56,776 bases of DNA from Escherichia phage Seurat, in the sequence record NC_027378.1; one strand, given 5' to 3'. Within the stretch, counting starts at the first letter, position 1, and each line of letters opens with the position of its first letter. Made by a program: the position numbers and the translations under genes. Shown piece by piece: positions 184 through 54,021 of this stretch. Below the pieces are notes generated by a model. That model saw nothing but the letters and a program-made list of their open reading frames with translations, had not been told where the DNA came from and searched no databases.

Positions 184-741
184 ATGAACGGGGCAAGTCA
201 AGAGCAATATGATCGTGACTGGACGAATTACATCCAGTATGCAAATAGCTTGTCCGCTGAAGAGATGGCAATACGTGACAAAGTTGTTGCTGAGTACATG
301 TTCGACTACAATTGGACTAACGCTTGCATGAGATGCGGGTTCAATGCTATGTTTGCACAGGAGCTTGGCCAACGCTTTGCCACGGACTGTTATGTTCGAT
401 GGAAGCTCAAGGAGATTGAAAGATCCCGTGTTCAACGTACTTCTGAGCAAGCTAACATTGAAGCAGACCTTGAGCGTCAGCATATCATTGAAGCATTAAA
501 ACGTGAAGCTCATTATACAGGACCGGGATCTTCTCAAGCTGCTAGAGTCGCCGCATTGGGCAAGCTTGCACAAATTTATGATTTGGATGCTCCCAAGAAG
601 GCTAAGATTGATGTTACTAACAGAGGTGGCGTAATGATAGTCCCTGCTGTAGCAAATATTGACGAATGGGAAAAAACTGCATCCGAGTCTCAACAACGAC
701 TAGTTAAAGAGACTGAAGATGGAGCTAAACCGACAACCTGA
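184..741 (+). CDS. terminase small subunit (putative)
   Basis: 185-aa ORF immediately upstream of and overlapping the large terminase; RBS AAGGGGG before the ATG; call is positional. Confidence 0.45.
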   Translation: MNGASQEQYDRDWTNYIQYANSLSAEEMAIRDKVVAEYMFDYNWTNACMRCGFNAMFAQELGQRFATDCYVRWKLKEIERSRVQRTSEQANIEADLERQHIIEALKREAHYTGPGSSQAARVAALGKLAQIYDLDAPKKAKIDVTNRGGVMIVPAVANIDEWEKTASESQQRLVKETEDGAKPTT

Positions 742-2278
742 TAACATGCCGCGAGTCGTCTGGAAACCACATCCAGGTTCACAGACACTCGCTCTATCCT
801 GCCCCGCTGATATTATCCTATACCACGGAACTCGCGGTCCTGGAAAAACGGACTGCCAGCTTATGCGTTTCCGTAAGAATGTTGGTGTAGGGTACGGTAA
901 ATTTTGGAAGGGTATTATATTCGACCGTGAATATAAAAACCTTGATGACCTTGTAACTAAATCCCAGCGTTGGTTTCCTGAATTTAAAGACGGGGCTAAA
1001 TTCCTTAGTTCTAAGTCTGATTATAAATGGGTTTGGCCTACTGGTGAAGAGCTACTGTTCCGCGTTGCTTGTAAAGAAAAGGATTACTGGTCTTATCACG
1101 GTCACGAATACCCATTTATCGGATGGAACGAATTGACAAAATATCCGGACGGGCGTTTGTTTGAAGCTATGATGTCCTGTAACCGTTCATCTTTCCTACC
1201 AGAAGATAACCCAATTATCAATCCAGATGGTACGGTTACATATTTACCGGATATCCCTCTTGAAGTGTTTGCTACCAGTAACCCGTTCGGTGCGGGGCAT
1301 AACTGGGTTAAGAAACGCTTCATTGACGCTGCACCGATGGGTAAAATACTCAGGAAGACTACGCGAGTGTTTAACCCGAGGACGCAGAAAGACGAAGATG
1401 TGGTTACGACGCAATGCCATATCTTTGGTTCGTACCGTGAAAACAAAAACCTAAGTCCAAAATATATTGCAGAACTTATGTCTATCACAGACCCGAACAA
1501 GCGTGCTGCATGGTTGGGCGGGAGCTGGGATATTACATCCGGTGGTATGTTCGATGATCTGTGGCGTAGCACTGTTCACAAAGTACGACCATTCCCGATT
1601 CCAGCGAGTTGGAAGATTACACGTTCTTTCGACTGGGGTTCTTCAAAACCGTTCTCTGTCGGTTGGTGGGCTATTAGTGATGGTTCGGATGTTGTGCGTG
1701 AAGATGGCACTACATTCTCCACGGTCCGCGGTGACCTGTTTAGGATTAACGAATGGTATGGGACCAACGGTAAAACAAACGAAGGTCTACATTTGCTGGA
1801 CTCAGAAATTGCAAGCGGTATACTGGAGCGGGAATTGGCCTGGGGTATACACGATCGTGTAGTTCCTGGTCCTGCGGATAACTCCATTTGGGATCTGGAG
1901 AACAATAACTCCACCGCTGCAACAATGGCGAAGAAAATTCGTCTTAACGGGAAGTTATACAACGGTATACATTGGAAGCGCAGTGATAAGTCTGCTGGGT
2001 CACGTAAACGAGGCTGGCAGAAAATGCGTGAGTTCCTTAAAGCTGCACTGCGGGAAGATGCGAACGGTAAACCTTTGCCCGGTCCGCGCGAGAATCCGGC
2101 AATGTACATTTTTGATAACTGCAACTATTTCTTTGAGCTGGTTCCAAGTCTACCTCGCGATGAAGTAGATCAGGACGACGTTGATACGGAATGTGAAGAC
2201 CATATGGGTGATGAAGTTCGTTATATGGTTCTGGATCAAGCTGTTTATACAGGTGTTGGCAAAACTATCGGTATTTAA
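719..2278 (+). CDS. terminase large subunit
   Basis: 519 aa; Walker A-like HGTRGPGKTD near the N-terminus; acidic nuclease-like C-terminal half; followed by the portal gene. Confidence 0.8.
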   Translation: MELNRQPDNMPRVVWKPHPGSQTLALSCPADIILYHGTRGPGKTDCQLMRFRKNVGVGYGKFWKGIIFDREYKNLDDLVTKSQRWFPEFKDGAKFLSSKSDYKWVWPTGEELLFRVACKEKDYWSYHGHEYPFIGWNELTKYPDGRLFEAMMSCNRSSFLPEDNPIINPDGTVTYLPDIPLEVFATSNPFGAGHNWVKKRFIDAAPMGKILRKTTRVFNPRTQKDEDVVTTQCHIFGSYRENKNLSPKYIAELMSITDPNKRAAWLGGSWDITSGGMFDDLWRSTVHKVRPFPIPASWKITRSFDWGSSKPFSVGWWAISDGSDVVREDGTTFSTVRGDLFRINEWYGTNGKTNEGLHLLDSEIASGILERELAWGIHDRVVPGPADNSIWDLENNNSTAATMAKKIRLNGKLYNGIHWKRSDKSAGSRKRGWQKMREFLKAALREDANGKPLPGPRENPAMYIFDNCNYFFELVPSLPRDEVDQDDVDTECEDHMGDEVRYMVLDQAVYTGVGKTIGI

Positions 2279-2289
2279 CTGGAGGGTAT

Positions 2290-3786
2290 ATGGGTATTGA
2301 TGCAACTCACCCGCTATACGACAAGTGGAAGAATGCATGGATTAAGTGCAACGACTGCTATGAGGGTGAAGATAAAATTAAGGAAGAAGGTGTTAAATAT
2401 CTACCGCCTTTAGCTTCCATGATTATTGATGGGATGAATAATCCTAATGATTTGGGCTTTCAACGTTGGCTCGCTTATCGTCTGCGTGCTAACTTCCCTG
2501 ACGATTATTCAAGTGCTGTTACAAACAATTTAGGTCTGCTGCACCAGAAGCCGCCTACAATCCAGCTTCCTCCTGAAATGGAGTACATGCGGGATCTGTG
2601 TACTGCGGACGGTGAAGACATTATTGCTCTGCTACGTCGCATCAACGAAATGCAGTTAAAAAATGGGCGTCTGGGCCTGCTACTGGACTTGCCTAAAGGT
2701 GAGGATGTAAATAACAGACCTTATATTAGCGTTTATGACGCTTTATCCATTATCAACTGGGATGATGGTAAAGATGAATTGGGCAATATCAACTTGAACA
2801 TGGTTGTTCTGGATGAAAGTGGTCCTGTACGTGTCAATCAGTTTGACTGGAAAGAAGAGAAGCGTTACCGCGTTCTACAATTAGGTCCAATGGACACAGA
2901 TGAAGTTGCAGGTGGGGCGATCTACTCCCAACATCTGTTTATTAACAATACCAATTATGATGAAGGGCAAATGATTGCTCCTTATTATAAAGGTAACACG
3001 CTGGACGAAATACCTTTCCAGTTTGTCAATACAACAGATATTACCCCAGCACCGGAAGCGCCGCCATTGTTGGGTCTTGCTAACATTTGTCTAAGCATGT
3101 ACCGAAGTGACGCGGATTACCGCCAAAGCTTGCATATGCAGGGTCAGGACACTTTAGTCGTTGTTGGTGGTACTGGGGAGAATGGGGATAAAGCCCCTCA
3201 ACGCATCGGCCCTGGCGCTGTCATTAACGTTGCTATTGGTGGTGACGCTAAATATGTAGGTGTTAGCGGTGACGGTTTGTCCGAGCAACGTCTCGCACTG
3301 GCAGCGGATAAGCAGGAAGCCCAAATTAAAGCCGGGCAAATGGTAAACAATACCAAGAGTACGCAGGAATCGGGCGAAGCCATGAAAACGCGTATTGCTG
3401 CGCGTACAGCTAGTCTGATTCGAATTGCGTATACTGGTGCGGCTGGTCTGGAAAACTTGCTGAAGGTTTGCGCTAAGTGGATGGGCGCTGATCCCGAGAA
3501 AGTTGTGGTTAAGCCTAATCTTGAATTCACCAAGAGCATGTTTAACGGTCAGGACTTTGTTCAAATTATTACTGCACGCAACCTTAAGGCTCCGATTAGC
3601 TTGCAGTCTATTCATGGTTGGCTTGTTGATCAGGGCTTAACCACACTAAGCTTTGAAGAAGAAATGGCAATTCTTGAAGAAGAGCTTAAGAAGTGGCCTT
3701 TGCCCGATGATGCTAAAGCTGATTTAAACGCAGAGCAGCAAGTAAGCAAAGATCCTAAGGAAGACGACGCTTCCGATAAAGAATAG
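2290..3786 (+). CDS. portal protein (putative)
   Basis: 498 aa directly after terminase; RBS GGAGGG; acidic C-terminus; size and position typical of portal. Confidence 0.65.
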   Translation: MGIDATHPLYDKWKNAWIKCNDCYEGEDKIKEEGVKYLPPLASMIIDGMNNPNDLGFQRWLAYRLRANFPDDYSSAVTNNLGLLHQKPPTIQLPPEMEYMRDLCTADGEDIIALLRRINEMQLKNGRLGLLLDLPKGEDVNNRPYISVYDALSIINWDDGKDELGNINLNMVVLDESGPVRVNQFDWKEEKRYRVLQLGPMDTDEVAGGAIYSQHLFINNTNYDEGQMIAPYYKGNTLDEIPFQFVNTTDITPAPEAPPLLGLANICLSMYRSDADYRQSLHMQGQDTLVVVGGTGENGDKAPQRIGPGAVINVAIGGDAKYVGVSGDGLSEQRLALAADKQEAQIKAGQMVNNTKSTQESGEAMKTRIAARTASLIRIAYTGAAGLENLLKVCAKWMGADPEKVVVKPNLEFTKSMFNGQDFVQIITARNLKAPISLQSIHGWLVDQGLTTLSFEEEMAILEEELKKWPLPDDAKADLNAEQQVSKDPKEDDASDKE

Positions 3787-18809: not shown

Positions 18810-20618
18810 ATGGCAACTCGTTTACGTGGTACTTTAGTTGATGGTTTGAACAAGCCTATTATCAACGCTACAGTTGCGCTTTTAGCTAAAGGAAACAGTC
18901 TTACCGTATTATCCGGCAGCGAAGCTATCTTTAAAACAAGTGCAACCGGAACTTATGATATTACAGTCCAGACAGGTTATTACAAGGTTATTATCGGTCC
19001 ACAGGGCGTAGAGCCATATAAAGCTGGTGAAATTGCTATTTACGCGGATAGTAAAGAAGGTACGCTGAATAACTATTTAACTACATGGGCACCGGAAGAA
19101 TTAACTCCGGAAGTTATTGCTCAGGTAAAAGATTTGGTTGCACAAGCAGAGACGGCTAAGAATGCTTCAGCTTCGTCTGCTACTAAATCCGAGCAAGAAC
19201 GCGTTAAAGCAGAAGCTGCTGCTAGAAAGGCAGAAGACACTGCTAATGGTATGAAGGCGTCTATTGGTCTTAGCAATGTTCCAAGACATGTAGCAGATAT
19301 TAGTGGAAACCCTTCTGAGTTCTTAGGGTTTATACGCATATTAAGGACAACTACTGTCGGTTATCCTTCAATTGCTTCTGGTGAAACAGTATTAGCTGGT
19401 TTTGTGTCACCGATGGATGGAACTCCAGGATATACTGGTGTATTTGTTGGAGATGTGACTGGGACTTTATATACTTACCGTTGGACTTCAGTTACTGGCG
19501 CTATATGGTGGAAACATGTAAAATCAGAAACAATAGACAGATATACACAATTATCCGATTCCACTACTATTTATAATGCGTCAAAGAGCGCTACCCTTGT
19601 CATAAAAGATACTAAAACTTGGGGAGCTTGGGACAATCAAAGCTCCAAATACATACCTCTGGCAATAGCACAGGGTGGCACTGGAGGGGTTACTGACGCG
19701 GACGCTCGTACAAACTTAAAGCTTGGCGCTAACGATACCCCGCAATTCAGAAACCTTAATCTTGTTACCGTAGCGGACACGGCGCAAGCCCCTTCCGGTA
19801 TTGTAAGCGGTTATTTAAATAATAGCTCTGGAGTTCAAAGATGCCGCTACCGCATATATTCTGAAATACGCGGTGACAATAAAGCGTGGTTAACCTTACA
19901 CCTTCAATCAGACACAGCAACAAATAAATATGCTGGTCTAAGCGTTGATGGTAATTTTCAAATCAATGGAAGTTTTATCGGTAACGCTTTAAGTCTTAGT
20001 GATGTCCCTACTTCTAAAGTAAATCTTCAAATTAATAGATTTGTTCAGAACACTGGTGAAACTGATGTGGTTAACCATGCAGGGACAGCTCAAATTTTTA
20101 TCACTGATAATAAAAATTGGGGAGCTTACGATAAAGAATCAAAGCGCCATATTCCTTTGCCCATTTCACAAGGAGGTACTGGAGCGGTTACTATTGCTGA
20201 TGCTAAAACCAATCTTCAAATTCCATCTGTAGGTGGGGGTGATTGGTTAACTTATAACGCCCCTCCTGGCGTGGAAGCTGGAAAGTATTATCCCGTTATT
20301 ATTGATATGGCGTATAGTTCTTTATATGCTTCCGGCGCTTTTATAGATATAAAAACAAAATCCGCCTCTGGCGATGATCCAATGAACTGCTGCACTTTTA
20401 ACGGTTTTATCCGATGTGGTGGTTGGAGCGATCGTAAAGACTTCGCAGGGGATTTTATTAGTAAGTTTCTTGGTATGCAACCAGAGCAGCCTGTAGAAGC
20501 ACGCGAGCATATTAGCCCGTGGCCACCCATGATTGATCAGGAAGTGCTGCAACCAAAGACCGCTCAAACGGTCCCTCAGAAACCGGAGCAGAAGGTGAAA
20601 CCAAATGACGAAGAATGA
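18810..20618 (+). CDS. side tail fibre / receptor-binding protein
   Basis: Track start is GTG at 18798, reset to the ATG at 18810 (RBS GGGAGA); two internal repeats (KTWGAWDNQSSKYIPLAIAQGGTGGVT... and NKNWGAYDKESKRHIPLPISQGGTGAVT...). Confidence 0.7.
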   Translation: MATRLRGTLVDGLNKPIINATVALLAKGNSLTVLSGSEAIFKTSATGTYDITVQTGYYKVIIGPQGVEPYKAGEIAIYADSKEGTLNNYLTTWAPEELTPEVIAQVKDLVAQAETAKNASASSATKSEQERVKAEAAARKAEDTANGMKASIGLSNVPRHVADISGNPSEFLGFIRILRTTTVGYPSIASGETVLAGFVSPMDGTPGYTGVFVGDVTGTLYTYRWTSVTGAIWWKHVKSETIDRYTQLSDSTTIYNASKSATLVIKDTKTWGAWDNQSSKYIPLAIAQGGTGGVTDADARTNLKLGANDTPQFRNLNLVTVADTAQAPSGIVSGYLNNSSGVQRCRYRIYSEIRGDNKAWLTLHLQSDTATNKYAGLSVDGNFQINGSFIGNALSLSDVPTSKVNLQINRFVQNTGETDVVNHAGTAQIFITDNKNWGAYDKESKRHIPLPISQGGTGAVTIADAKTNLQIPSVGGGDWLTYNAPPGVEAGKYYPVIIDMAYSSLYASGAFIDIKTKSASGDDPMNCCTFNGFIRCGGWSDRKDFAGDFISKFLGMQPEQPVEAREHISPWPPMIDQEVLQPKTAQTVPQKPEQKVKPNDEE

Positions 20619-22723: not shown

Positions 22724-24709
22724 TTAGGCGTATCCCATGTCTTCGAGATACTTCTCTGCTTTAGCTATATAAGCATCATAATCTATGTCGTCCGGCACTT
22801 TATCCGGTAGCGTCATGATCGGAACACCTCCCGCGCTACCAGCTACACGGTTGCCCGTGTTAGCATAGATTATTTCAGGTGTTTCTTCATTAGTGCTTAA
22901 GTACCAGCGTACAACCTTACCCAAAAATTCGCCATTCCATACCGCGCCGCCTTTTACCGCACGTAGGATAATGAATTTTCTAATATCGTTGCAATTGCGT
23001 ATAGTACGAGAAACAGGCGTACCGTGGGCCAAACATTCACATACAGCTTCCATAATGATCTCACCAGTACAGTTCTTTTGAAGACCTGTCTTTGCGAACC
23101 ACCCTTTACGTTTAATTTCAACATTTCCTTCCTCGTCAGGTTCTTTTACTGCAACATAGTTATTGACGTTAGCGCTGTACAGCTTGTCATAGTAGTTGGA
23201 CTCCATTTCAAAGCCTGTCACGGATTCCCACCACTTGATCATATTATCAACGAAGTCCTGCATATGGTCCGGATACTTAACCACAATACCATCCGTGTTC
23301 GCTGAAATTACTTTAACACCATTTAACTCAAATGCTTCAATAAGCATCAACAGTGATAGCTGCCCTGTTAATGTAACTTGTATCAATAATTGCGGCGCGT
23401 AAAGGACAGACCACATAGACCCCAGCTTACCAAACGATCCGTTAATAACGATCTTCAGCGTGTTGGCTGTGTTCTTGTCTCCGCTGTGCTTAGCTGCAAT
23501 ACGGCGGTCTACAATACTTTTATAAACACGAAGGAACGCTGGTCCCAACTGTTCTGGATATAAGCCCTGATTAAGAATGATTGAAGGATAATAAGACGTT
23601 ACGTCAATGTCCCGCTTTTTGATACCAGGCTCTTTACCGTGGCCAGCACACTCTTCGGAGCTATGTAAACCACCAATACCCATACGGTAGACACCGTCTG
23701 CAATCTTGATCTCAAGACCTGTTAATGCTGGAGGTAAGCTGACACCACCGTTATCGCTAACAATAAAGCGACAGTCCCGAACAATATCAAGAACACTATT
23801 CATCAAAGGTGTTTGAAAACGAATAAAGTCCGGTATGTTGTATGCATACTTTGTTCCAGGATAAACTTGCGGACGCTGTGGGCGCACGCCCGTTAACGCT
23901 TGGATTTCGTGCTTAATTACGTCTTCTGCAATCTGTGCATCGGAGCGTGAACGTAGATCCACACCGTATTCTTGCGACATAATTTCACGCAAGTGAATAG
24001 GCTCTTGCAATGCAATAAAACATTCTTCTGTTTGTACAAGGTCGTTAATACAGTACCAGCGTACAATTAACATCTGGTCCTGCGTTAACATGGTATTGGG
24101 TTTGAACGGTAAATCCTGCATACGTCGAGTATGTACACGTCCGCCGTATTGTTTCAAACCGCCGGACCCAGGCAGCACTTCCATGATATCAATGTGGTTA
24201 ACGTTCTGCATACGCTTGAGACGGTAACTTTTCAATACATCCGAAGGACGCCAGTCTTCAACGATTATCTTATCGGTCGCGTCTTTAAGCTGCGCATTAG
24301 AACAGCCGTTAAGCGCAAGCGTAGCAATGGGCATATCGTACCCGTTACCGTTAAAGCTTACGATAAGGAAGTTTGTCATTACCCAGTTAAGTAATAAGCA
24401 ATTCAAACTACAACCGTGATACATCTCGAAGTAGACAACTTTCTTAGTTCGCACTCCGCGAAATGCAATTAAAAAATAATTTGGATAACATTCTATATCA
24501 TATACAAGCGGTTCGCGGTTAATCCATGCTTGAATAAGTTCGTCCTGTGTGTACAGGTTGTATTGGAAGTTCCGCGCTTCCTCAAGATTAGGCAAATAAT
24601 CCGGGCGCTCCCAAGTGCGCTCCGGCGGTAAACGTTTAACCTTTTCTTTTTTTGCTTTTGGCTCAGGCGGTAAGTCCTGCCAAAAGAAACCAATAGCATC
24701 TGTCCGCAT
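22724..24709 (-). CDS. family B DNA polymerase with 3'-5' exonuclease domain
   Basis: Exo motifs YDIECYPNYF, FNGNGYDMP, WYCINDL; polymerase motifs DVTSYYPSII, KIVINGSFGKLG, SANTDGIV; track start is TTG at 24763, reset to the ATG at 24709. Confidence 0.8.
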   Translation of the reverse strand: MRTDAIGFFWQDLPPEPKAKKEKVKRLPPERTWERPDYLPNLEEARNFQYNLYTQDELIQAWINREPLVYDIECYPNYFLIAFRGVRTKKVVYFEMYHGCSLNCLLLNWVMTNFLIVSFNGNGYDMPIATLALNGCSNAQLKDATDKIIVEDWRPSDVLKSYRLKRMQNVNHIDIMEVLPGSGGLKQYGGRVHTRRMQDLPFKPNTMLTQDQMLIVRWYCINDLVQTEECFIALQEPIHLREIMSQEYGVDLRSRSDAQIAEDVIKHEIQALTGVRPQRPQVYPGTKYAYNIPDFIRFQTPLMNSVLDIVRDCRFIVSDNGGVSLPPALTGLEIKIADGVYRMGIGGLHSSEECAGHGKEPGIKKRDIDVTSYYPSIILNQGLYPEQLGPAFLRVYKSIVDRRIAAKHSGDKNTANTLKIVINGSFGKLGSMWSVLYAPQLLIQVTLTGQLSLLMLIEAFELNGVKVISANTDGIVVKYPDHMQDFVDNMIKWWESVTGFEMESNYYDKLYSANVNNYVAVKEPDEEGNVEIKRKGWFAKTGLQKNCTGEIIMEAVCECLAHGTPVSRTIRNCNDIRKFIILRAVKGGAVWNGEFLGKVVRWYLSTNEETPEIIYANTGNRVAGSAGGVPIMTLPDKVPDDIDYDAYIAKAEKYLEDMGYA

Positions 24710-25449
24710 TAGACACGTTCTCCAATTAATACACCGCGAAGATTTTCCCCAAAGAATGCGCAAGGTTGCGGATATAAACTAAAGTCCGCAGTCTTAACCA
24801 CATTTTCGAGTAATAACAGGATGTCGATATTGTAAACTCCCGTTATTGATCTGTCCTGCAATACGAAGCTTGCACCTTCTGCATCATCATAATGAGTACG
24901 CGCTAGACCGTTTTCAATATATACGCGAGGACGATCTTCCGCAAAAGGTTTGATTTTATGCAAGCCCTCAAAAAGACCTGGATCAACAGGATGTGCATTG
25001 CATTGAACATTTAAAATACGACGTATATCAGGCCACTCCGCATCAATAAGCTGTGTTCGCAACCAGCGACCTTCCGGATAATGAAACGTCACATTGTTCT
25101 TGCTGACCTGAATATGTGTCGGGTTAGCTTTAATGCGCAGTATTTCTTTAATAGCAACAGACGGTATTATGCAGTCAATAGGGAATTGATTACCGAACCA
25201 ATATTCCGCAATGGTGACGTTATTTGTAGCAAACAGGCTACCGTTATTGATCAGAATACCGCAAGCCCACGGGCGGGATGCATCTGAGCCTACGAACGGA
25301 GCAACGGACTTCACACCGTGTACGAAGCGAGCACCGTCTATTTCGTATAAATTGCCTTCAGGGAATACGTGAGGTGTTTCCTTGTCAATACAGCGTATAG
25401 CAACACGAAACGGTCCGGACTTGATATTAAGTTTACCGTTAGCCATCAT
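24709..25449 (-). CDS. hypothetical protein between DpdA and the DNA polymerase
   Basis: About 247 aa; start set at ATGATG preceded by AAGGAAAA; stop overlaps the polymerase ATG (TAATG). Confidence 0.45.
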   Translation of the reverse strand: MMANGKLNIKSGPFRVAIRCIDKETPHVFPEGNLYEIDGARFVHGVKSVAPFVGSDASRPWACGILINNGSLFATNNVTIAEYWFGNQFPIDCIIPSVAIKEILRIKANPTHIQVSKNNVTFHYPEGRWLRTQLIDAEWPDIRRILNVQCNAHPVDPGLFEGLHKIKPFAEDRPRVYIENGLARTHYDDAEGASFVLQDRSITGVYNIDILLLLENVVKTADFSLYPQPCAFFGENLRGVLIGERV

Positions 25450-46603: not shown

Positions 46604-46885
46604 ATAGGGTATTGCCTTAACCCTATGGTAAGACCCTCCCTATTAAATTGCAAGAGTTATTGTAAAACAATAGGTATAGGGTGCAATACAGGGTTCATAT
46701 AGGGTAACCCTATAAACACCCTATAAAATACCCTCCCTATGCAGCTTTCTAAATTTATAGTTTTAGTTTACCCCTTGCGCCCCCGCAGAAAAACTAAAGA
46801 TAGGGGTACTAGGGTAAACATTGGCAAATACCCTATACCCTACTCCCTATACTATGATTCTAAAAAATTTGGAGTATACCCCTAT
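46604..46885. repeat. iteron-like array of CCCTAT/ATAGGG hexamers (at least 12 copies, both orientations)
   Basis: Includes the palindrome TATAGGGTAACCCTATA near 46698-46714; about 0.14 copies expected by chance in 280 bp. Confidence 0.7.
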
Positions 46886-47060
46886 AAACTTATAAACTTT
46901 CAGTCAACTAACTAAAATAAAACTAATTAAACTAATATTAATAATAACTATAAATATATATAAAATAAGGATTTATTATTAATGTATATAGTACCTATTG
47001 GTATTATTTGACGAGTTTATGGTCATTATATAAACTCTATAAATTTTCATAAACCTGAAC
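46886..47060. other. AT-rich tract (candidate DNA unwinding element)
   Basis: About 175 bp almost devoid of G/C immediately after the iteron array; no ORF. Confidence 0.55.
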
Positions 47061-47903: not shown

Positions 47904-48518
47904 TTAACCCTCCAAGCCGTTATATTTGCGCCAGGCGTAGAACTGAATGGCTACCGTCGTCCCGTTGTAAGAAGGCATTGCAGCTTTCATTTCTTTCAGC
48001 TCCGGCGTGCGGCCCAGTTCCTTCAGAAGCTTGTCGCCCATTGCCCACACTTCGGCAGTTTTTCCTTTCAGGGGCTTGCGAGCGCCATTTTTGAAATCAC
48101 AGCGAGCAGCTTTTACATCCTGTTTTGGCGCGGCAGCTTTTGGCTCTTCAATTTTGATTTCAGAAACCTGCGTGGCAGCTTTTGCGTGTTTCATATCTTT
48201 CTCTTCCTCCTGCTCCAGAGCTTCGAGGCAGCTTTTGACGATTTCCGGATTTACCATCGGGCGCAGTACCGAGACGCTGGCAGCTGGCGCGGCGGTCGGT
48301 GCCGGGACTTTCTGCTCCGGCTGTTGCGCTTTTTCGTGATCGCGAAGCACCTGAAGCACTTCCTTTTCGACAATGTAAAAACCGATGTCGTCCTGATGAA
48401 TTAACTGTTCGTGTGCGTCGCGTGCAACCTGACCCCAACGGTTCTTCAGGGCGCGGCGTGCATTCGTTTTCATGGTGTAACGCATTTTGTCCTGTTCGCG
48501 GTGAGTTACTTTAGACAT
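47904..48518 (-). CDS. hypothetical early protein
   Basis: 204 aa. Confidence 0.45.
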   Translation of the reverse strand: MSKVTHREQDKMRYTMKTNARRALKNRWGQVARDAHEQLIHQDDIGFYIVEKEVLQVLRDHEKAQQPEQKVPAPTAAPAASVSVLRPMVNPEIVKSCLEALEQEEEKDMKHAKAATQVSEIKIEEPKAAAPKQDVKAARCDFKNGARKPLKGKTAEVWAMGDKLLKELGRTPELKEMKAAMPSYNGTTVAIQFYAWRKYNGLEG

Positions 48519-49108: not shown

Positions 49109-49441
49109 GTTGTGCTCCTTAATGTGGTTAAGTAGTATTGCTTTGTTGAAGTAATAATAGCCTTGCATCGTGATATTGAATAGGCCAAAAGTGCTATTTT
49201 AGATCACTATTACATCTACAGCTTTGCAGTAACGCTACGCTAAAAATGCAAAGTCTTACGTTTGCTAAACATGTAGATTTTGTGCACATCACTCTTAGTA
49301 CGTATAACGTCTATTATGTTAAATAGCTAACCTATTGATTTATGGTATGCCCTACGTGCGGTTGGATGAATGTCGTGTCTAAGTCTTTGTTTTAAAAGGT
49401 GCTAAAAATTTGATGGTGGAAAACTGTAAAAGTACATGTCA

Positions 49442-49471
49442 TTAACTGACATAAAATGTTGTCAGTATAAA
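49442..49471 (+). promoter_or_regulatory. candidate rightward promoter with a palindromic operator in the spacer
   Basis: TTAACT-N18-TATAAA; spacer holds CTGACAT-aaa-ATGTTGTCAG. Confidence 0.3.
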
Positions 49472-49556
49472 TGCCACGTTTGGCCTAGACATAGATCAAG
49501 TCATGTCGTACTATATAGTCAAAGGAAAGATAAAGCCGAAAGGCGGAGGAAATAAA

Positions 49557-49706
49557 ATGAGAAAGTTTAAAGTCATGTGCTATGGTAACTACATTGGAGA
49601 CGTTAAAGCGCCGAACCGTGCGGATGCAGAAGGTTTCGTCCGCGCAGAGATGCAACTTGGAATTGCTGATTTTGCAGCTATTATTGAACTGGTAGAGGTA
49701 TTTTAA
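49557..49706 (+). CDS. hypothetical small protein
   Basis: Start reset to the ATG at 49557 with RBS GGAGG. Confidence 0.4.
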   Translation: MRKFKVMCYGNYIGDVKAPNRADAEGFVRAEMQLGIADFAAIIELVEVF

Positions 49707-49707
49707 T

Positions 49708-49851
49708 ATGACACGCAAATACAGGCTTACACGTGCACAGCACGCGTTATTATTGCAGGTTATGCGCATGGAGTACGAAGAGACTACATGGGCGCAAGCT
49801 ATGCAGACAGGGCGCGAGTTCTACGCGCAACTAATAGCACAAAATGCCTAG
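49708..49851 (+). CDS. small protein (47 aa), not in the ORF track
   Basis: TAATATG arrangement with the previous gene; RBS GAGG. Confidence 0.35.
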   Translation: MTRKYRLTRAQHALLLQVMRMEYEETTWAQAMQTGREFYAQLIAQNA

Positions 49852-49908
49852 ACAACATGATCGGTCTGGTGGATACTACACACATCAACCAAATAGTGGA
49901 GGTACAAA

Positions 49909-50094
49909 ATGTTAATCTTAATCATGATGGTCGTTGCGGTAGTGGGCCCACTGGTGGCACTGATTGTAACCGAAGTATGTGATGCTAAATGGGATCGCAA
50001 ATACAACGAAGTAATGGAACAGCGGTATGCAGAGCGCCGCGTAAGGAAATGGGAACAGCGCTATAACGCACACAGCGACACGCTAGCGAGCTAA
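49909..50094 (+). CDS. small membrane protein
   Basis: 61 aa; N-terminal TM helix; RBS GGAGG. Confidence 0.45.
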   Translation: MLILIMMVVAVVGPLVALIVTEVCDAKWDRKYNEVMEQRYAERRVRKWEQRYNAHSDTLAS

Positions 50095-50135
50095 TGTACA
50101 TAGGTAATGGTAATGCATTAGCTTGGGCGAAACAG

Positions 50136-50175
50136 GCGCACAGCGTCGCGCACAGCTCGCACAGCGCACACAGAC
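50136..50175. repeat. short tandem GC-rich repeat (GCGCACAGC units)
   Basis: GCGCACAGCGTC / GCGCACAGCTC / GCACAGCGCACACAG in a roughly 400-bp non-coding stretch. Confidence 0.55.
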
Positions 50176-50492
50176 CCACGCAGGCCCAGCCGCGCAACCC
50201 GACCCATCCTTTTCCAGGTACTTGGAGCGCTGGGGCGTGCCCTGTCCATCCTGATAGTAAGTCCACGCCTAAATCTCACCAATCACTTTACTATCCACCT
50301 ACATCCATGACCCCACCTACCTTCTTTTTGAATATATTGCGCTCATCCTTTCTAAATATATGGATTTTGGTAGTAAATTCTGAGTCGTCAACGTATAATT
50401 CGTCTTGTAGCTGCTCCATAGCTACCATCTTTAAGCGGATGCAACCAATTTCTATCAATTCTTACCAGTTTTAGAGCATCAAGGAGGTATTT

Positions 50493-50750
50493 ATGTGCGA
50501 CTCCAGTGCAAGCGCTACACCCAGCACCTCCAGCAATGTGGTTACAGAGGTAAATGCAATGCGATTAGGTCCATATCGCGGCTATTATGGTCGGGCAGCA
50601 TGGAATGACGCTACTCAACGTTTTGAAGGCTGGATTATCTGCCCGGAACGTGTTAAATTTCACTCCGTAAAAGAGAAAAATATCGTTCTTAATTTTCAAA
50701 AATGTGTCACTAAATATGTAGAGGAGCAAGAAGAATGTCTTATCAATTAG
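50493..50750 (+). CDS. hypothetical protein
   Basis: 85 aa; RBS AAGGAGG. Confidence 0.5.
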   Translation: MCDSSASATPSTSSNVVTEVNAMRLGPYRGYYGRAAWNDATQRFEGWIICPERVKFHSVKEKNIVLNFQKCVTKYVEEQEECLIN

Positions 50751-51097
50751 CTTTAGAAGCTGCCGGATGCGAAGTATTAGATTATGTTGAATACGGCTGC
50801 TATCAAGGTGAGTGGCTTGCATTGATCCGCAAGGACGGCGCTTTGGGAGTTTGCGAAGGGTCTTATGGTTCCTGCTCAGTTTGCGATGCATTTGAGGCTG
50901 AATTTGGTTATTTAGATGATGAGGAAGCGGATTACCAGAAACGTCTTGCAGATTTTGGAGAAGGTTACTTACCCGCAAATACTTTTGAAGAGATGATTGC
51001 TAAGCTTCAGAAGGATGTTGAAAACTATTCATACGATGACGATTATAAGTCAATGTTGAATACAGTTATTAACTGGCAAAAGCAATACGGGGTTTAA
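50735..51097 (+). CDS. highly acidic protein
   Basis: 120 aa rich in D/E/Y; RBS GAGGAG. Confidence 0.5.
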   Translation: MSYQLALEAAGCEVLDYVEYGCYQGEWLALIRKDGALGVCEGSYGSCSVCDAFEAEFGYLDDEEADYQKRLADFGEGYLPANTFEEMIAKLQKDVENYSYDDDYKSMLNTVINWQKQYGV

Positions 51098-51098
51098 G

Positions 51099-51338
51099 AT
51101 GCGTTTAAAGTATAAGCAAAAGATTGTAGAATACTTCGGGATGCAACTTGTTGTCCCTGAATGGGTTAAATGGCTTGCTGTCGATGGTGATGGGGAGCTG
51201 TACGGTTACGAATGCGAGCCTGATAACTTAGTTGATGAACCGTGGGACGAATGGTACACAGAAGAAGGTAAATGTTACCGCATTACAGAAGTAGTTCTTG
51301 AAGAACATTGGTCTGAAACCTTAGTGGAGCTTTTCTAA
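51099..51338 (+). CDS. small acidic protein, paralogous family member
   Basis: VPEWVKWLAVDGDGELYGYECEPD...EEHWSETLVEL. Confidence 0.5.
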   Translation: MRLKYKQKIVEYFGMQLVVPEWVKWLAVDGDGELYGYECEPDNLVDEPWDEWYTEEGKCYRITEVVLEEHWSETLVELF

Positions 51339-51339
51339 A

Positions 51340-51630
51340 ATGCACATAGAAGAACTTGTTGAAGGCAAAGAGTATCGTTTACTGACCGATATTGGTGGTG
51401 TTGGGTATACTCCGGATGATGCGGCTTGTTTTAACGTCCTTCCGCAAGGTGCTATCGTGACAGTTAACAAGGTCGTTACCGATTTATACAGTGTTCATGA
51501 CGGCAGATGGCCATATGCAGTTATTGTCACCTTCGGTAAAGATGGTTATGTGGACCTTGATGGCGAAGACGATACTTACGAAGTTGCGTATACAGGTCTG
51601 GTAAGTCCCAATTTCCTGGAAGAAGTATAA
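51340..51630 (+). CDS. hypothetical acidic protein
   Basis: 96 aa. Confidence 0.45.
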   Translation: MHIEELVEGKEYRLLTDIGGVGYTPDDAACFNVLPQGAIVTVNKVVTDLYSVHDGRWPYAVIVTFGKDGYVDLDGEDDTYEVAYTGLVSPNFLEEV

Positions 51631-51681
51631 TTATCAATCTATAATGGGCTCTACGGAGCCCTTAATTATCTGGAGGTTGTT

Positions 51682-51978
51682 ATGCTGTATTTAGGAATGG
51701 ACGAAACTGGACACGCGATTCCTTCCGTTAACAAGGAGACGCAAGTATTTACCGACTATTACGGGTCTGCTGTCCCTGTTGAGCCCTGGGCTAACTTTAT
51801 CGCTGTAGACGCAGACGGTAAAGTACATTGTTATGACGCCAAACCTTCTTGCTATGAATCTGGTAAGCAATGGATGCTTGGCGTATACGGTTTGCATGTT
51901 CGCTACTGCGGCGAAGTTGACATTGAAGGTGTGGACTGGCGCGATACGTTGAAGGAGATTAAAGATGTCCGCGGCTGA
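51682..51978 (+). CDS. small acidic protein, paralogous family member
   Basis: VEPWANFIAVDADGKVHCYDAKPS...GVDWRDTLKEI; RBS GGAGG. Confidence 0.5.
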   Translation: MLYLGMDETGHAIPSVNKETQVFTDYYGSAVPVEPWANFIAVDADGKVHCYDAKPSCYESGKQWMLGVYGLHVRYCGEVDIEGVDWRDTLKEIKDVRG

Positions 51979-52051
51979 AGTTACGACATTTATAATAGCT
52001 TTTGCTGTTGCTTTATTCCTTATAGCTAAGTTAGATTTAATGATGGGATAG
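51965..52051 (+). CDS. hydrophobic micro-protein (28 aa), not in the ORF track
   Basis: MSAAEVTTFIIAFAVALFLIAKLDLMMG; RBS AGGAG; overlaps the stop of the previous gene. Confidence 0.4.
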   Translation: MSAAEVTTFIIAFAVALFLIAKLDLMMG

Positions 52052-52054
52052 TTT

Positions 52055-52279
52055 ATGCGCTTACTCATGGTGTTAGGCGTTATACTTGCCGCTTTCGTTG
52101 TATTTGCAATTGTAGACTCTAAAGAAATGGAGCGGCAAAACTGCCAACGTACTGGTAACAGCCGGGATGATATTATTTGGCAATATATTTACGATGCAAA
52201 AGGTAATGTTATGTCAATGTATCCTCAGGTTATTACTGAGTATGAATATAAATGCAATGACCGTAACAGGTGGAGATAA
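52055..52279 (+). CDS. small membrane protein
   Basis: 74 aa; N-terminal TM helix. Confidence 0.45.
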   Translation: MRLLMVLGVILAAFVVFAIVDSKEMERQNCQRTGNSRDDIIWQYIYDAKGNVMSMYPQVITEYEYKCNDRNRWR

Positions 52280-52281
52280 TA

Positions 52282-52821
52282 ATGAGCTGTCAAAAATGTA
52301 ACGGAACGGGAATGGTTGATAGTGGTGGAGTTCAACCGTGGGGTGATCCTATTCTGGTGGAGTGCGATTGTTTATATCGTGAGCGCGATGCTTGGGAGCT
52401 GGATCAAGCTGGAGGTTATTACTCCCGCCATGTTATGGCAATGACATCCGAAGGTTTGCACAGCAAAGGTGATATTGCTGCGGAGCTGGGCTATCGTGAC
52501 ATGCGCATTGACCAGATAGAAGCTGAATGGCGTGCTCAGGAAGAACGTGCAGAAAATGCTGAGACGGATCTTGTCGACATGCGTGCTGCTGAGCACGCTC
52601 TATCCGATTCTTATATTCGTTTGCGTCAAATTGTTGGTGCAATGAATCCGCCTGGTGTGAGCAGCGAAGAGGTGTGGGCGCATACCGAGAAGAAGGCTCA
52701 AGAGTTGCGTGATCGCTGCGAAGCTCTGGAAGCTGTAGCAAAGGACTTCCTGCGTCGTAACGCTAACGGTCCTTTGTTCTATCGTGATTTGTATAACCGT
52801 TTTAAGGAGATTGTGAAATGA
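52282..52821 (+). CDS. zinc-finger protein (DnaJ-like CxxCxGxG motif)
   Basis: Track start is GTG at 52270; reset to the ATG at 52282; CQKCNGTG...ECDC. Confidence 0.5.
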   Translation: MSCQKCNGTGMVDSGGVQPWGDPILVECDCLYRERDAWELDQAGGYYSRHVMAMTSEGLHSKGDIAAELGYRDMRIDQIEAEWRAQEERAENAETDLVDMRAAEHALSDSYIRLRQIVGAMNPPGVSSEEVWAHTEKKAQELRDRCEALEAVAKDFLRRNANGPLFYRDLYNRFKEIVK

Positions 52822-53087
52822 TTACTGCTCAAGAAGCTCGTGAATTAAGCGATAAGCTGGATATTAGCGAAGATATTGAATTTATCAGTGACAGCATTCG
52901 TGTAGCTGCTACAAAGGGATACAATAAAGTATCACTGGTGACCAAATACGGCGCTGTTGGCAATCCTGACACTCAAGACCCAACCACTATGAAGATCGCT
53001 AAATGGTTAGCCGATTCTGGTTTTACGGTGCTATATTATCCTTCCATGGACCAACGTGATAACGAGCGTACTGAGGTAGCATGGTGA
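52818..53087 (+). CDS. hypothetical protein
   Basis: 89 aa. Confidence 0.45.
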   Translation: MITAQEARELSDKLDISEDIEFISDSIRVAATKGYNKVSLVTKYGAVGNPDTQDPTTMKIAKWLADSGFTVLYYPSMDQRDNERTEVAW

Positions 53088-53155
53088 TTGAAGAAAATAT
53101 CAAATATTGGAAAGGCTTTATTGACGAAATGTTGAAACCATTGGAGAAGAAATAA
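53081..53155 (+). CDS. translationally coupled micro-ORF (24 aa), not in the ORF track
   Basis: ATG overlaps the upstream stop (ATGGTGA) and its TAA overlaps the downstream ATG (TAATG). Confidence 0.35.
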   Translation: MVIEENIKYWKGFIDEMLKPLEKK

Positions 53156-53547
53156 TGCTATTAGTCGTCACCGGAGGTCGAGATTTTAAGCATGTGGAGT
53201 ATATTTACGCTCAATTGGATAAGCTGCATATGCAAAGAAGGATAACCACACTTCGCCACGGTGACGCTGACGGTGTTGACCGGATTTGCGCACATTGGGC
53301 GGAGCGCAACGGTATTAAAACAGAAGCATTCCCTGCCCCGTGGGACAATCTTTCCTTACCAAATACCAAGATACGGTATAATGCCAAAGGTGCTTATAAT
53401 GCACAAGCAGGCGCTTACCGCAACCAATTAATGCTGGATACTGATCCTAAACCAGATCACGCTATTGTGTTTCCTGGCGGAGCTGGTACTATGGATATGT
53501 ACAGACGGATTAAAGCATCCGGTATTCCTTACACTTTAGCGGAGTAA
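53155..53547 (+). CDS. SLOG/LOG-like Rossmann-fold protein (DUF2493-like)
   Basis: VVTGGRDF, GDADGVDR and VFPGGAGTMDM glycine-rich motifs. Confidence 0.45.
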   Translation: MLLVVTGGRDFKHVEYIYAQLDKLHMQRRITTLRHGDADGVDRICAHWAERNGIKTEAFPAPWDNLSLPNTKIRYNAKGAYNAQAGAYRNQLMLDTDPKPDHAIVFPGGAGTMDMYRRIKASGIPYTLAE

Positions 53548-53550
53548 ATA

Positions 53551-54021
53551 ATGGCTGACGTTAAAACTATTGTTGATGCAATGGACGAGTCCAAAGACTG
53601 CCAACTGAAGAAGTCGTTTGAAGTAAAACAGGTTACAGAGACTCAGTTAGTCTGTAATTTTGCGCGTTATTGTGGACTGGGCCGTGGGAAAGACTGGAAC
53701 GGGCTTATTGTTATGCCCACATCACAGATCCTCGTTTACGTCCGCAATATTGTAGAAGATCTTTTGCGTCTTCAAATAGATATTGGTGACGTAGAAATTA
53801 ACATGACCGCGAGCTCTACCATTGTGGTTAAATGGCAGTCGGGCGAGACACTGCGTTTGGAAGCGTGCCATTGTGCTAAGAGCCTACACCACCTGCGCGG
53901 TTGTCATTACCAGTTCGTTGGGTTTGTACATCCGCAAGGGTTAAGCGAGCGTACGGCGCTGGTAGCGCGTTTGCTGCTGCGTCCTTATAATAACGAGCCG
54001 GAAGTTATATACGAGGCATAA
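53551..54021 (+). CDS. hypothetical Cys/His-containing protein
   Basis: 156 aa. Confidence 0.45.
   Translation: MADVKTIVDAMDESKDCQLKKSFEVKQVTETQLVCNFARYCGLGRGKDWNGLIVMPTSQILVYVRNIVEDLLRLQIDIGDVEINMTASSTIVVKWQSGETLRLEACHCAKSLHHLRGCHYQFVGFVHPQGLSERTALVARLLLRPYNNEPEVIYEA

Follow-up and report, generated by a model that had tools for sequence, protein, structure and literature searches.

The DNA of Escherichia phage Seurat probably has a fixed right-hand end in the virion, and we place it within an untranslated island just ahead of the first gene of the unique region: comparison with the sequence records of relatives puts the right edge of a direct terminal repeat, which would also be the site at which concatemers are cut, at about position 50243. 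The sequence analysed (here the window) is the complete Seurat record (KM236243, 56,776 bp), whose length and composition match the genome announcement (56,776 bp with 44.6% G+C, the sequence starting from the small terminase gene; PMC4342423). The repeat is seen in the records of relatives, and the window is a collapsed record; Seurat itself was not among the matches in the phage BLAST collection. A sequence-only reading of positions 50095–50492 had proposed either a regulatory region or a recombination or packaging-related site. Its packaging alternative is supported from two directions, the repeat edge of a related Seuratvirus, which falls at 50243/50244, and the same architecture mapped experimentally in a sister genus.

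Under this proposal, Seurat-like phages would have fixed ends and a direct terminal repeat of ~3.4–3.7 kb, running from the last leftward early genes through the region of divergent early promoters to three or four tiny rightward genes. Terminase (TerS and TerL) would cut concatemers at ~50243/50244, and the repeat would then be duplicated as in other phages of the direct-terminal-repeat type (PMC5557969). To the right of the end would follow a C-rich, G-poor untranslated spacer and then a promoter-like −10 element with the leader of the first unique gene.

Terminal repeats in relatives of Seurat

The Seuratvirus ECP2304 (OR880647.1) is deposited as a record of 63,590 bp that begins and ends with the same 3,695-bp sequence, an exact direct repeat (100% identity). 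The right edge of this repeat reads ...CACCCGAGGGCCCTT/ATCCATCCTGATAGTA (the slash marking the edge), with 3695/3696 aligning to window 50243/50244; base 3697 pairs with window 50245, which sets the edge at that position. The left edge, ...GGAAGTG/GAATAATTTATTCC, projects to ~46834 in the window, again in non-coding DNA, and a left edge at ~46.83 kb predicts a Seurat repeat of ~3.4–3.5 kb. Both ECP2304 edges are non-coding and lie beside palindromes, the 15-bp GGAATAATTTATTCC on the left and AGGGCCCT on the right. At least three unrelated sequence types occupy the left edge among Seuratviruses, and ECP2304 and the window are homologous only from 46886–46890 onwards, so the left edge can be given as a zone and not to the exact base.

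The last part of the repeat occurs in two unrelated forms, cassette B with the GC-rich tandem repeats of Seurat and cassette B' without them, as in ECP2304. The breakpoint between B and B' lies within 5 nt of the ECP2304 repeat edge, and in three contigs (L070, L072 and L074) an ECP2304-type left edge is joined to the GC-repeat cassette. Left- and right-edge types therefore assort freely, which argues that the architecture is not confined to B' phages. Together with the non-coding palindromic edges and the synteny, the breakpoint and these contigs make the ECP2304 edge credible and not an accident of assembly.

Independent data come from Nonagvirus, a genus of the same subfamily. A physical DNA end was located in phage 9g at 28,243, where 91 reads start in one orientation only, 23 end and 85 cross; Kulikov et al. 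placed it in an untranslated stretch of 603 bp that separates the early from the late block, and concluded that there is a direct terminal repeat, to which they gave no size (PMC4276943). The records of HdSG1 and HdK1 have exact terminal repeats of 3,363 and 3,367 bp, whose right edge (...GCCGCGGGGCGGCTC/TTAGATC) coincides to the nucleotide with 9g 28,243, and their depositors reported distinct start and end points. The HdSG1 and HdK1 records and the 9g read pile-up are thus two agreeing independent data sets. Elsewhere in the Queuovirinae, direct terminal repeats of 1,091 bp were mapped by Nanopore sequencing in the iggy lineage (PMC10484667).

The Nonagvirus terminus is the closest relative of the one predicted here. 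In both genera, the edge of a repeat of similar length (~3.36 kb in Nonagvirus) sits in a large untranslated region 5' of the first rightward gene, with a short GC-rich palindrome immediately before the end. The palindrome has counterparts in AGGGCCCT (ECP2304), GGCGCC (other B' phages) and GCCGC-GGG-GCGGC (9g, HdSG1 and HdK1), all of which finish 1–3 nt before the mapped end. Direct repeats (ATACCAGGTAAC, three times) lie inside the Nonagvirus terminal repeat near its end, and the repeat holds the divergent early promoters and gp37; the homologue of 9g gp37 (window 47904–48518, − strand) falls inside the predicted Seurat repeat. The two genera differ in the distance to the next gene (132 nt in the 9g record versus 249 nt in Seurat), in the extra small rightward genes that Seuratviruses have inside the repeat, and in the swapping of edge cassettes, seen only in Seuratvirus. 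Their non-coding DNA also has no detectable homology: a match between the 9g and Seurat untranslated regions was sought and rejected (best match 13 nt, E = 0.41).

Fixed ends or headful packaging

Phages that package from a pac site, such as P22 and P1, also make a sequence-specific first terminase cut, often near short repeats, and this is the mechanism published for Seurat on the basis of TerL. Applied here, a pac site at ~50243 would take one precise initiating cut, followed by leftward headful packaging, and would give partly permuted DNA with an imprecise redundancy of ~3–7 kb. Beyond the grouping of TerL with headful packagers, a single hot spot in 9g, with starting reads in one orientation plus crossing reads, is the PhageTerm signature of a pac site, and the total record lengths of ECP2304 and HdSG1 are nearly equal (63,590 versus 63,595). 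We nevertheless regard a pac site as unlikely. PhageTerm expects tau to be 0.5 for direct terminal repeats and 1/(1+C) at a pac site (PMC5557969); the 9g read counts (91 + 23 terminating, 85 crossing) give ~0.57, which would imply less than one genome per concatemer, whereas a pac site should show tau below 0.5, one precise end and one distributed end. HdSG1 and HdK1 share both edges, which are homologous, their left ones to within 3–4 nt. Their repeats differ by 4 bp and their unique lengths (60,232 and 60,692 bp) by 460 bp; repeat length in the sister genus is thus independent of unique length, which argues against a headful-measured end. Headful ends are imprecise and their redundancy scales with genome length, contrary to the Nonagvirus data. 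The distinct start and end points seen by the HdSG1 and HdK1 depositors, and an ECP2304 left edge at a palindrome in non-coding DNA, also speak against a pac site. A cos site, which would give cohesive single-stranded ends and no terminal redundancy, does not fit: relatives' records hold 3.4–3.7 kb of redundancy and 9g reads cross the end.

Several points weigh against a fixed end in Seurat. ECP2304 is the only Seuratvirus record that carries the repeat, and no paper was found behind it. Pac-type headful packaging was inferred for Seurat by its authors, who relied on TerL similarity (PMC4342423), and a headful mode was also the suggestion of the OddieOddie authors; a literature search on Seuratvirus termini found nothing beyond such TerL-based guesses. 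The only Pfam family that TerL matches is the T4-type Terminase_6N, and its other match is the generic phrog_2. The 9g paper gave one pile-up and not two, the left and right ends have no significant shared sequence, and the left edge differs from one Seuratvirus to another. No contig breaks were seen at the site in IMG/VR; contig ends in IMG/VR and Logan are uninformative on physical ends. Set against these is the wider conservation of the island than of its flanking genes, which we count for a terminus. Whether the DNA is cut at a fixed end, as we prefer, or at a pac site, the comparison suggests that the stretch is a packaging site.

A cleavage signal common to left and right ends was tried and rejected: 80 of 300 and 52 of 300 shuffles reach the similarity scores, and 7 of 300 in the window. 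Short same-orientation motifs do occur at both ends of individual records (CYTGATAGWA in ECP2304 and TCGYCASTAGAC in HdSG1).

Anatomy of the island and repeats elsewhere in the window

By sequence comparison the island is conserved non-coding DNA (Table 1). Among relatives, homology begins at 50060–50063 regardless of which gene lies upstream and extends to the ATG at 50493. The island and the following gene align in 12–18 of 18 relatives, their flanking genes in 3–6 of 18, and the stretch is present in ~34 Seuratvirus records, mostly at ~95% identity. The non-coding stretch recognized earlier is therefore conserved as such, but it starts at ~50060, within the last 30 nt of the upstream gene, and not at 50095.

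Table 1. Features of the predicted right end and its surroundings, in window coordinates
Feature	Position	Strand	Description
Terminase small subunit gene	184–741	+	presumed cutting enzyme, with the large subunit
Terminase large subunit gene	719–2278	+	presumed cutting enzyme, with the small subunit
Left-edge zone of terminal repeat	46770–46890	.	approximate
Conserved untranslated island	50060–50492	.	433 nt; straddles predicted end, 184 nt inside terminal repeat and 249 nt outside
Hairpin A	50089–50123	+	arms AGCTAATG (50089–50096) and CATTAGCT (50116–50123); loop with GTAATGGTAATG (50104–50115)
Cassette B	50122–50243	.	last 122 bp of predicted terminal repeat; 68% G+C (genome 44.6%); swappable
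Tandem unit 1	50136–50147	+	GCGCACAGCGTC
Tandem unit 2	50148–50158	+	GCGCACAGCTC
Tandem unit 3	50159–50173	+	GCACAGCGCACACAG, also written GCACAGC-GCACACAG
Conserved motif	50197–50223	+	ACCCGACCCATCC-TTTT-CCAGGTACTT; inside cassette B
GC-rich interrupted palindrome	50233–50242	.	GGGCGTGCCC; immediately 5' of predicted end
Predicted right physical end	50243–50244	.	right edge of direct terminal repeat; cut between these bases, ± a few nt
C-rich/G-poor tract	50245–50340	+	CCATCCTGATAGTA (50246–50259), AAATCTCAC (50271–50279), CCACCTAC (50295–50302 and 50313–50320)
42-amino-acid (aa) open reading frame	50419 to 50291	−	not conserved as protein
Module D	50341–50492	+	AT-rich stretch; TATAAT (50394–50399); hairpin GTAGCT-N7-AGCTAC (50407–50425); Shine-Dalgarno AAGGAGGT (50481–50488)
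First gene of unique region	50493–50750	+	85 aa, phrog_24875; always linked to island

Annotators have treated the island in three ways, leaving it empty, calling a + strand open reading frame (ORF) of 58–171 aa, or calling the 42-aa ORF on the − strand. That the stretch encodes a product, from either ORF or as a structured small RNA, is extremely unlikely, even though coding sequences are annotated in CAjan (gp75), VogelGryff (bas25_0072), Greed and OddieOddie and 11 of 15 genomes retain an intact 42-aa ORF. The + strand ORF of the window (50094–50474, 126 aa) matches no Pfam or PHROG family, and in relatives frameshifting indels leave ORFs of 52–171 aa behind the homologous ATG, which is itself lost in ECP2304; a + strand gene was rejected on these grounds, in agreement with the earlier view of the stretch as non-coding. 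A − strand gene was likewise rejected: nearly all changes in the 42-aa ORF are amino-acid-changing, CAjan, SLUR75 and SD04 have a disrupted frame, and STP-SP5 lacks the ORF. A known or structured RNA was rejected too, with no Rfam match to the island at E up to 1 and fold z-scores on the two strands (0.01 and +1.17) no better than those of shuffled sequence.

The tandem units of the sequence-only reading, of the type GCGCACAGC, lie where it had put them (50136–50173), and its description of the DNA as almost T-free holds, with only 2 T among the 40 nt at 50136–50175. GCACAG starts at 50138, 50150 and 50159 (spacing 12, then 9), and Tandem Repeats Finder detects the array with weak scores of 31–41 at periods of 12, 9 and 7. 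Counting either strand, this is the sole place in the window with three GCACAG within 60 nt. Two or three copies persist in STP-SP5 and yong3, relatives that are ~70% identical, so the repeats are more than chance.

The repeats lie 70–107 nt inside the predicted right end and are absent when the cassette is exchanged. In eight relatives (SHIN8, ECP2304, SA126VB, Dru_SM1, Skure, SLUR25/63 and GottfriedDienst), the unrelated cassette B' of ~257 nt replaces B, with homology resuming at window 50239–50245. Repeat number, which the earlier reading had suggested comparing across related genomes, is constant in B-type phages and zero in these eight. TerS is 98.9–100% identical between B-type and B'-type phages (100% in 6 of 8 B' records). 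The repeats cannot therefore serve TerS as an allele-specific recognition site, and a role as the terminase recognition signal was rejected on this basis; the idea that they are the functional core is not supported. We suggest from these comparisons that they are an exchangeable accessory, at most an accessory protein-binding array. Their persistence in diverged lineages and the 12-nt spacing of the first two units are compatible with such an array. The 122-bp terminal cassette would be exchanged as a unit, probably by end-initiated recombination. A host origin of cassette B was rejected, with no counterpart among 5,426 E. coli genomes.

Better candidates for a cleavage signal than the GC-rich repeats are GGTACT (at −27 from the end), the GC palindrome (−11 to −2), CCATCCTGATAGTA (+3 to +16) and CCACCTAC (+52 and +70), because they are common to all relatives; we infer that these could be the elements recognized. 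They have no other occurrence in the genome. GGTACT is found in cassette B' at an equal distance from the end, and ACCCGACCC and CCAGGTA each occur once on the + strand of the window. Hairpin A, by comparison with STP-SP5, shows a compensating change (arms AGCTAGCCC and GGGCTAGCT), yet it was rejected as a conserved structure, since its stem is truncated or broken in B'-type phages, where the cassette junction falls in the 3' arm. Its GTAATGGTAATG loop, with one occurrence in the genome, is retained in the E. coli Seuratviruses, a few of which show one change in it.

Right of the predicted end, the motifs CCATCCTGATAGTA, AAATCTCAC and CCACCTAC are unique to the site and kept in all relatives, including those of 70% identity and those with HNH or other insertions. 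The tract that contains them has a + strand C/G ratio of 5.3–7.0 (78-nt windows), and comparable tracts lie just after the ECP2304 right edge, the HdSG1 left end (ratio up to 20) and, weakly, the 9g right end. It is possibly a Rho entry site on untranslated rightward RNA. Only three places in the window are of this kind: a second peak (ratio 13) lies at 46875, where the terminal repeat is presumed to have its left edge, and a third with a ratio of at least 4 at ~21500, between a + strand ORF ending at 20618 and a − strand ORF at 22724–24763. An insertion hot spot lies just right of CCCCACCTACC (window ~50322), with HNH homing-endonuclease genes in SA80RD, Dru_SM1 and Skure and a ~380-nt insertion in SD04 (insert coordinates 1830–2312 in L006, 1996–2469 in L015, 1968–2441 in L016 and ~1200–1680 in L007). 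In the sister genus, the corresponding spot is occupied by an HNH gene in HdK1 and JenP1.

Of the parts of the island, only module D, at its 3' end, is a possible promoter and leader for the first unique rightward gene, judged by its motifs and conservation. The TATAAT noted earlier at about 100 nt from the next gene is present, 94 nt 5' of the ATG. Identity across the module is 93–98% per 20-nt bin, except for 86% at 50460–50479, and equals or exceeds that of the following gene. The −10 matches in 6 of 6 positions and the best −35, TAGTAA at a 17-nt spacer, in 3 of 6; a consensus scan did not list the site. A dispersed phage promoter motif was rejected, as the conserved motifs and the TATAAT context are found at this site only.

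These features also invite a purely transcriptional explanation, in which early rightward transcripts end at Rho entry and hairpins, the promoter at 50394–50399 restarts transcription, the repeats are operator or activator sites, and the DNA end lies elsewhere or is not fixed. The perfect TATAAT with AT-rich DNA upstream, a hairpin at the predicted transcript start, a strong Shine-Dalgarno and the near invariance of module D agree with it, as do a C/G ratio of up to 7 across ~100 untranslated nt, a distance between the first two repeat units of about one helical turn, as in a protein-binding array, and the terminator and promoter that the SA126VB annotators predicted within cassette B'. We think it improbable as the whole account: the −35 is poor and the site was not called, the motif has no second copy in the genome, eight relatives do without the repeats, and the ECP2304 repeat edge with its coincident cassette breakpoints is left unexplained. 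Transcriptional signals here would moreover be compatible with a DNA terminus and not exclusive of it.

A replication origin, with the repeats as iterons beside an AT-rich unwinding element at 50328–50380, is very unlikely. Three to four direct repeats with an AT-rich stretch ~150 nt away, in conserved non-coding DNA, have the look of one; the repeats are, however, absent from the eight relatives, whose replication genes are near-identical, and no initiator gene is adjacent by Pfam or PHROG. With one mismatch or fewer, no DnaA box (TTATCCACA) occurs in 49132–53822, the best being CTATCCACC at 50291–50299 with two mismatches. A better candidate for iterons with AT-rich DNA lies at 46700–46990. 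This non-coding, repeat-rich region near the presumed left edge has about seven ACCCTATAAAC-type units and a GC palindrome, TGCGCCCCCGCA (46775–46786), followed by a very AT-rich stretch, and may contain the left end or an origin, or the two together.

A more speculative extension of the fixed end, to which we give little credence, is that the island is a modular, telomere-like end element whose last 120–260 bp (B or B') are exchanged exactly at the terminus. A host or phage factor bound at the entering end might then protect it from RecBCD or impose a T5-like pause after the early-gene repeat. The G-depleted, strand-asymmetric tracts right of the ends may serve such an end function in a phage that replaces G with 7-deazaguanine.

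Further repeats were seen inside and beyond the predicted terminal repeat. The direct repeat CTTTCTAAAT(T/A)TAT(A/G)G(-/A)TTT occurs at 46745–46764 and 50348–50367 (85% identical, 3,603 nt apart), placing AT-rich sequence near both predicted edges, and is of marginal significance (7 of 300 shuffles reach its score). A 19-nt inverted repeat (49181–49199 and 49469–49487, 84% complementary) brackets a 334-bp divergent intergenic region inside the predicted repeat, which separates the leftward early genes from the rightward small genes. Three CTGCGTGGCAGCTTTTG-like 17-mers, spaced by 42 and 53 nt, lie at 48126–48237 within the − strand gp37 homologue. The most over-represented 9-mer of the genome is TTAACCACA (TGTGGTTAA), with 21 exact sites on both strands from 3504 to 53831 (for example, 3504–3512, 24794–24802 and 49123–49131; 0.69 expected), inside genes and without flanking conservation. 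It is found in 24 copies in 50 kb of CAjan, in 4 in 5.2 kb of yong3 and in none in 12.5 kb of 9g and HdSG1; similar words are also frequent (ATAACCACA, 12; GTAACCACA, 8).

Analogous termini and what fixed ends would mean

Phage T5 is the closest well-studied analogue. There the untranslated Repeat Region 3, known as the injection-stop region, lies across the inner boundary of the left repeat and extends 270 bp into unique DNA; it is packed with repeats and palindromes, is conserved above the neighbouring ORFs and has HNH genes inserted nearby (10.1101/866236). The predicted Seurat terminus resembles it in having a long terminal repeat with the earliest genes, in an untranslated region with repeats and palindromes that crosses the inner edge and overruns into unique DNA (by 249 nt, against 270 bp in T5), in an island more conserved than neighbouring ORFs and in the HNH genes inserted beside it. 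T5 differs in its ~10-kb repeat, its 1.2-kb region with eight paired DnaA boxes and its two-step injection, a process that Seuratviruses are not known to share. In Davison's model the T5 region is defined by its paired DnaA boxes; as these are missing from the Seurat stretch, the relation is one of analogy and not of membership.

T7 has fixed ends cut from concatemers at specific positions, as predicted here for Seurat. Dunn and Studier are said to have described in 1983 short-repeat arrays, SRL and SRR, that flank the T7 terminal repeat. That repeat is 160 bp and its packaging needs the phage's own RNA polymerase, whereas Seurat is a siphovirus with a predicted repeat of ~3.4 kb and uses the host polymerase. 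In phages of the T7 type, the repeat is duplicated by synthesis from staggered nicks (PMC5557969).

Elements of this kind are known already; the novelty lies in assigning one to this genus and in correcting the published packaging mode. Seurat gives its name to the genus, and the family is used in studies of phage–host interaction and DNA modification (the BASEL collection and work on 7-deazaguanine). Its genome was published as headful-packaged and opened arbitrarily at terS, which fixed ends would contradict. If the prediction is right, deposited Seuratvirus genomes miss ~6% of the virion DNA, the Seurat record being short by ~3.4 kb, and each virion carries two copies of the earliest genes, which lie at the entering end. 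The true ends would then be needed for engineering the genome, for rebooting it from synthetic DNA and for assessing transduction risk. The site would also provide exact coordinates at which to study long-terminal-repeat cutting in a small siphovirus; even in T5 this step is poorly understood.

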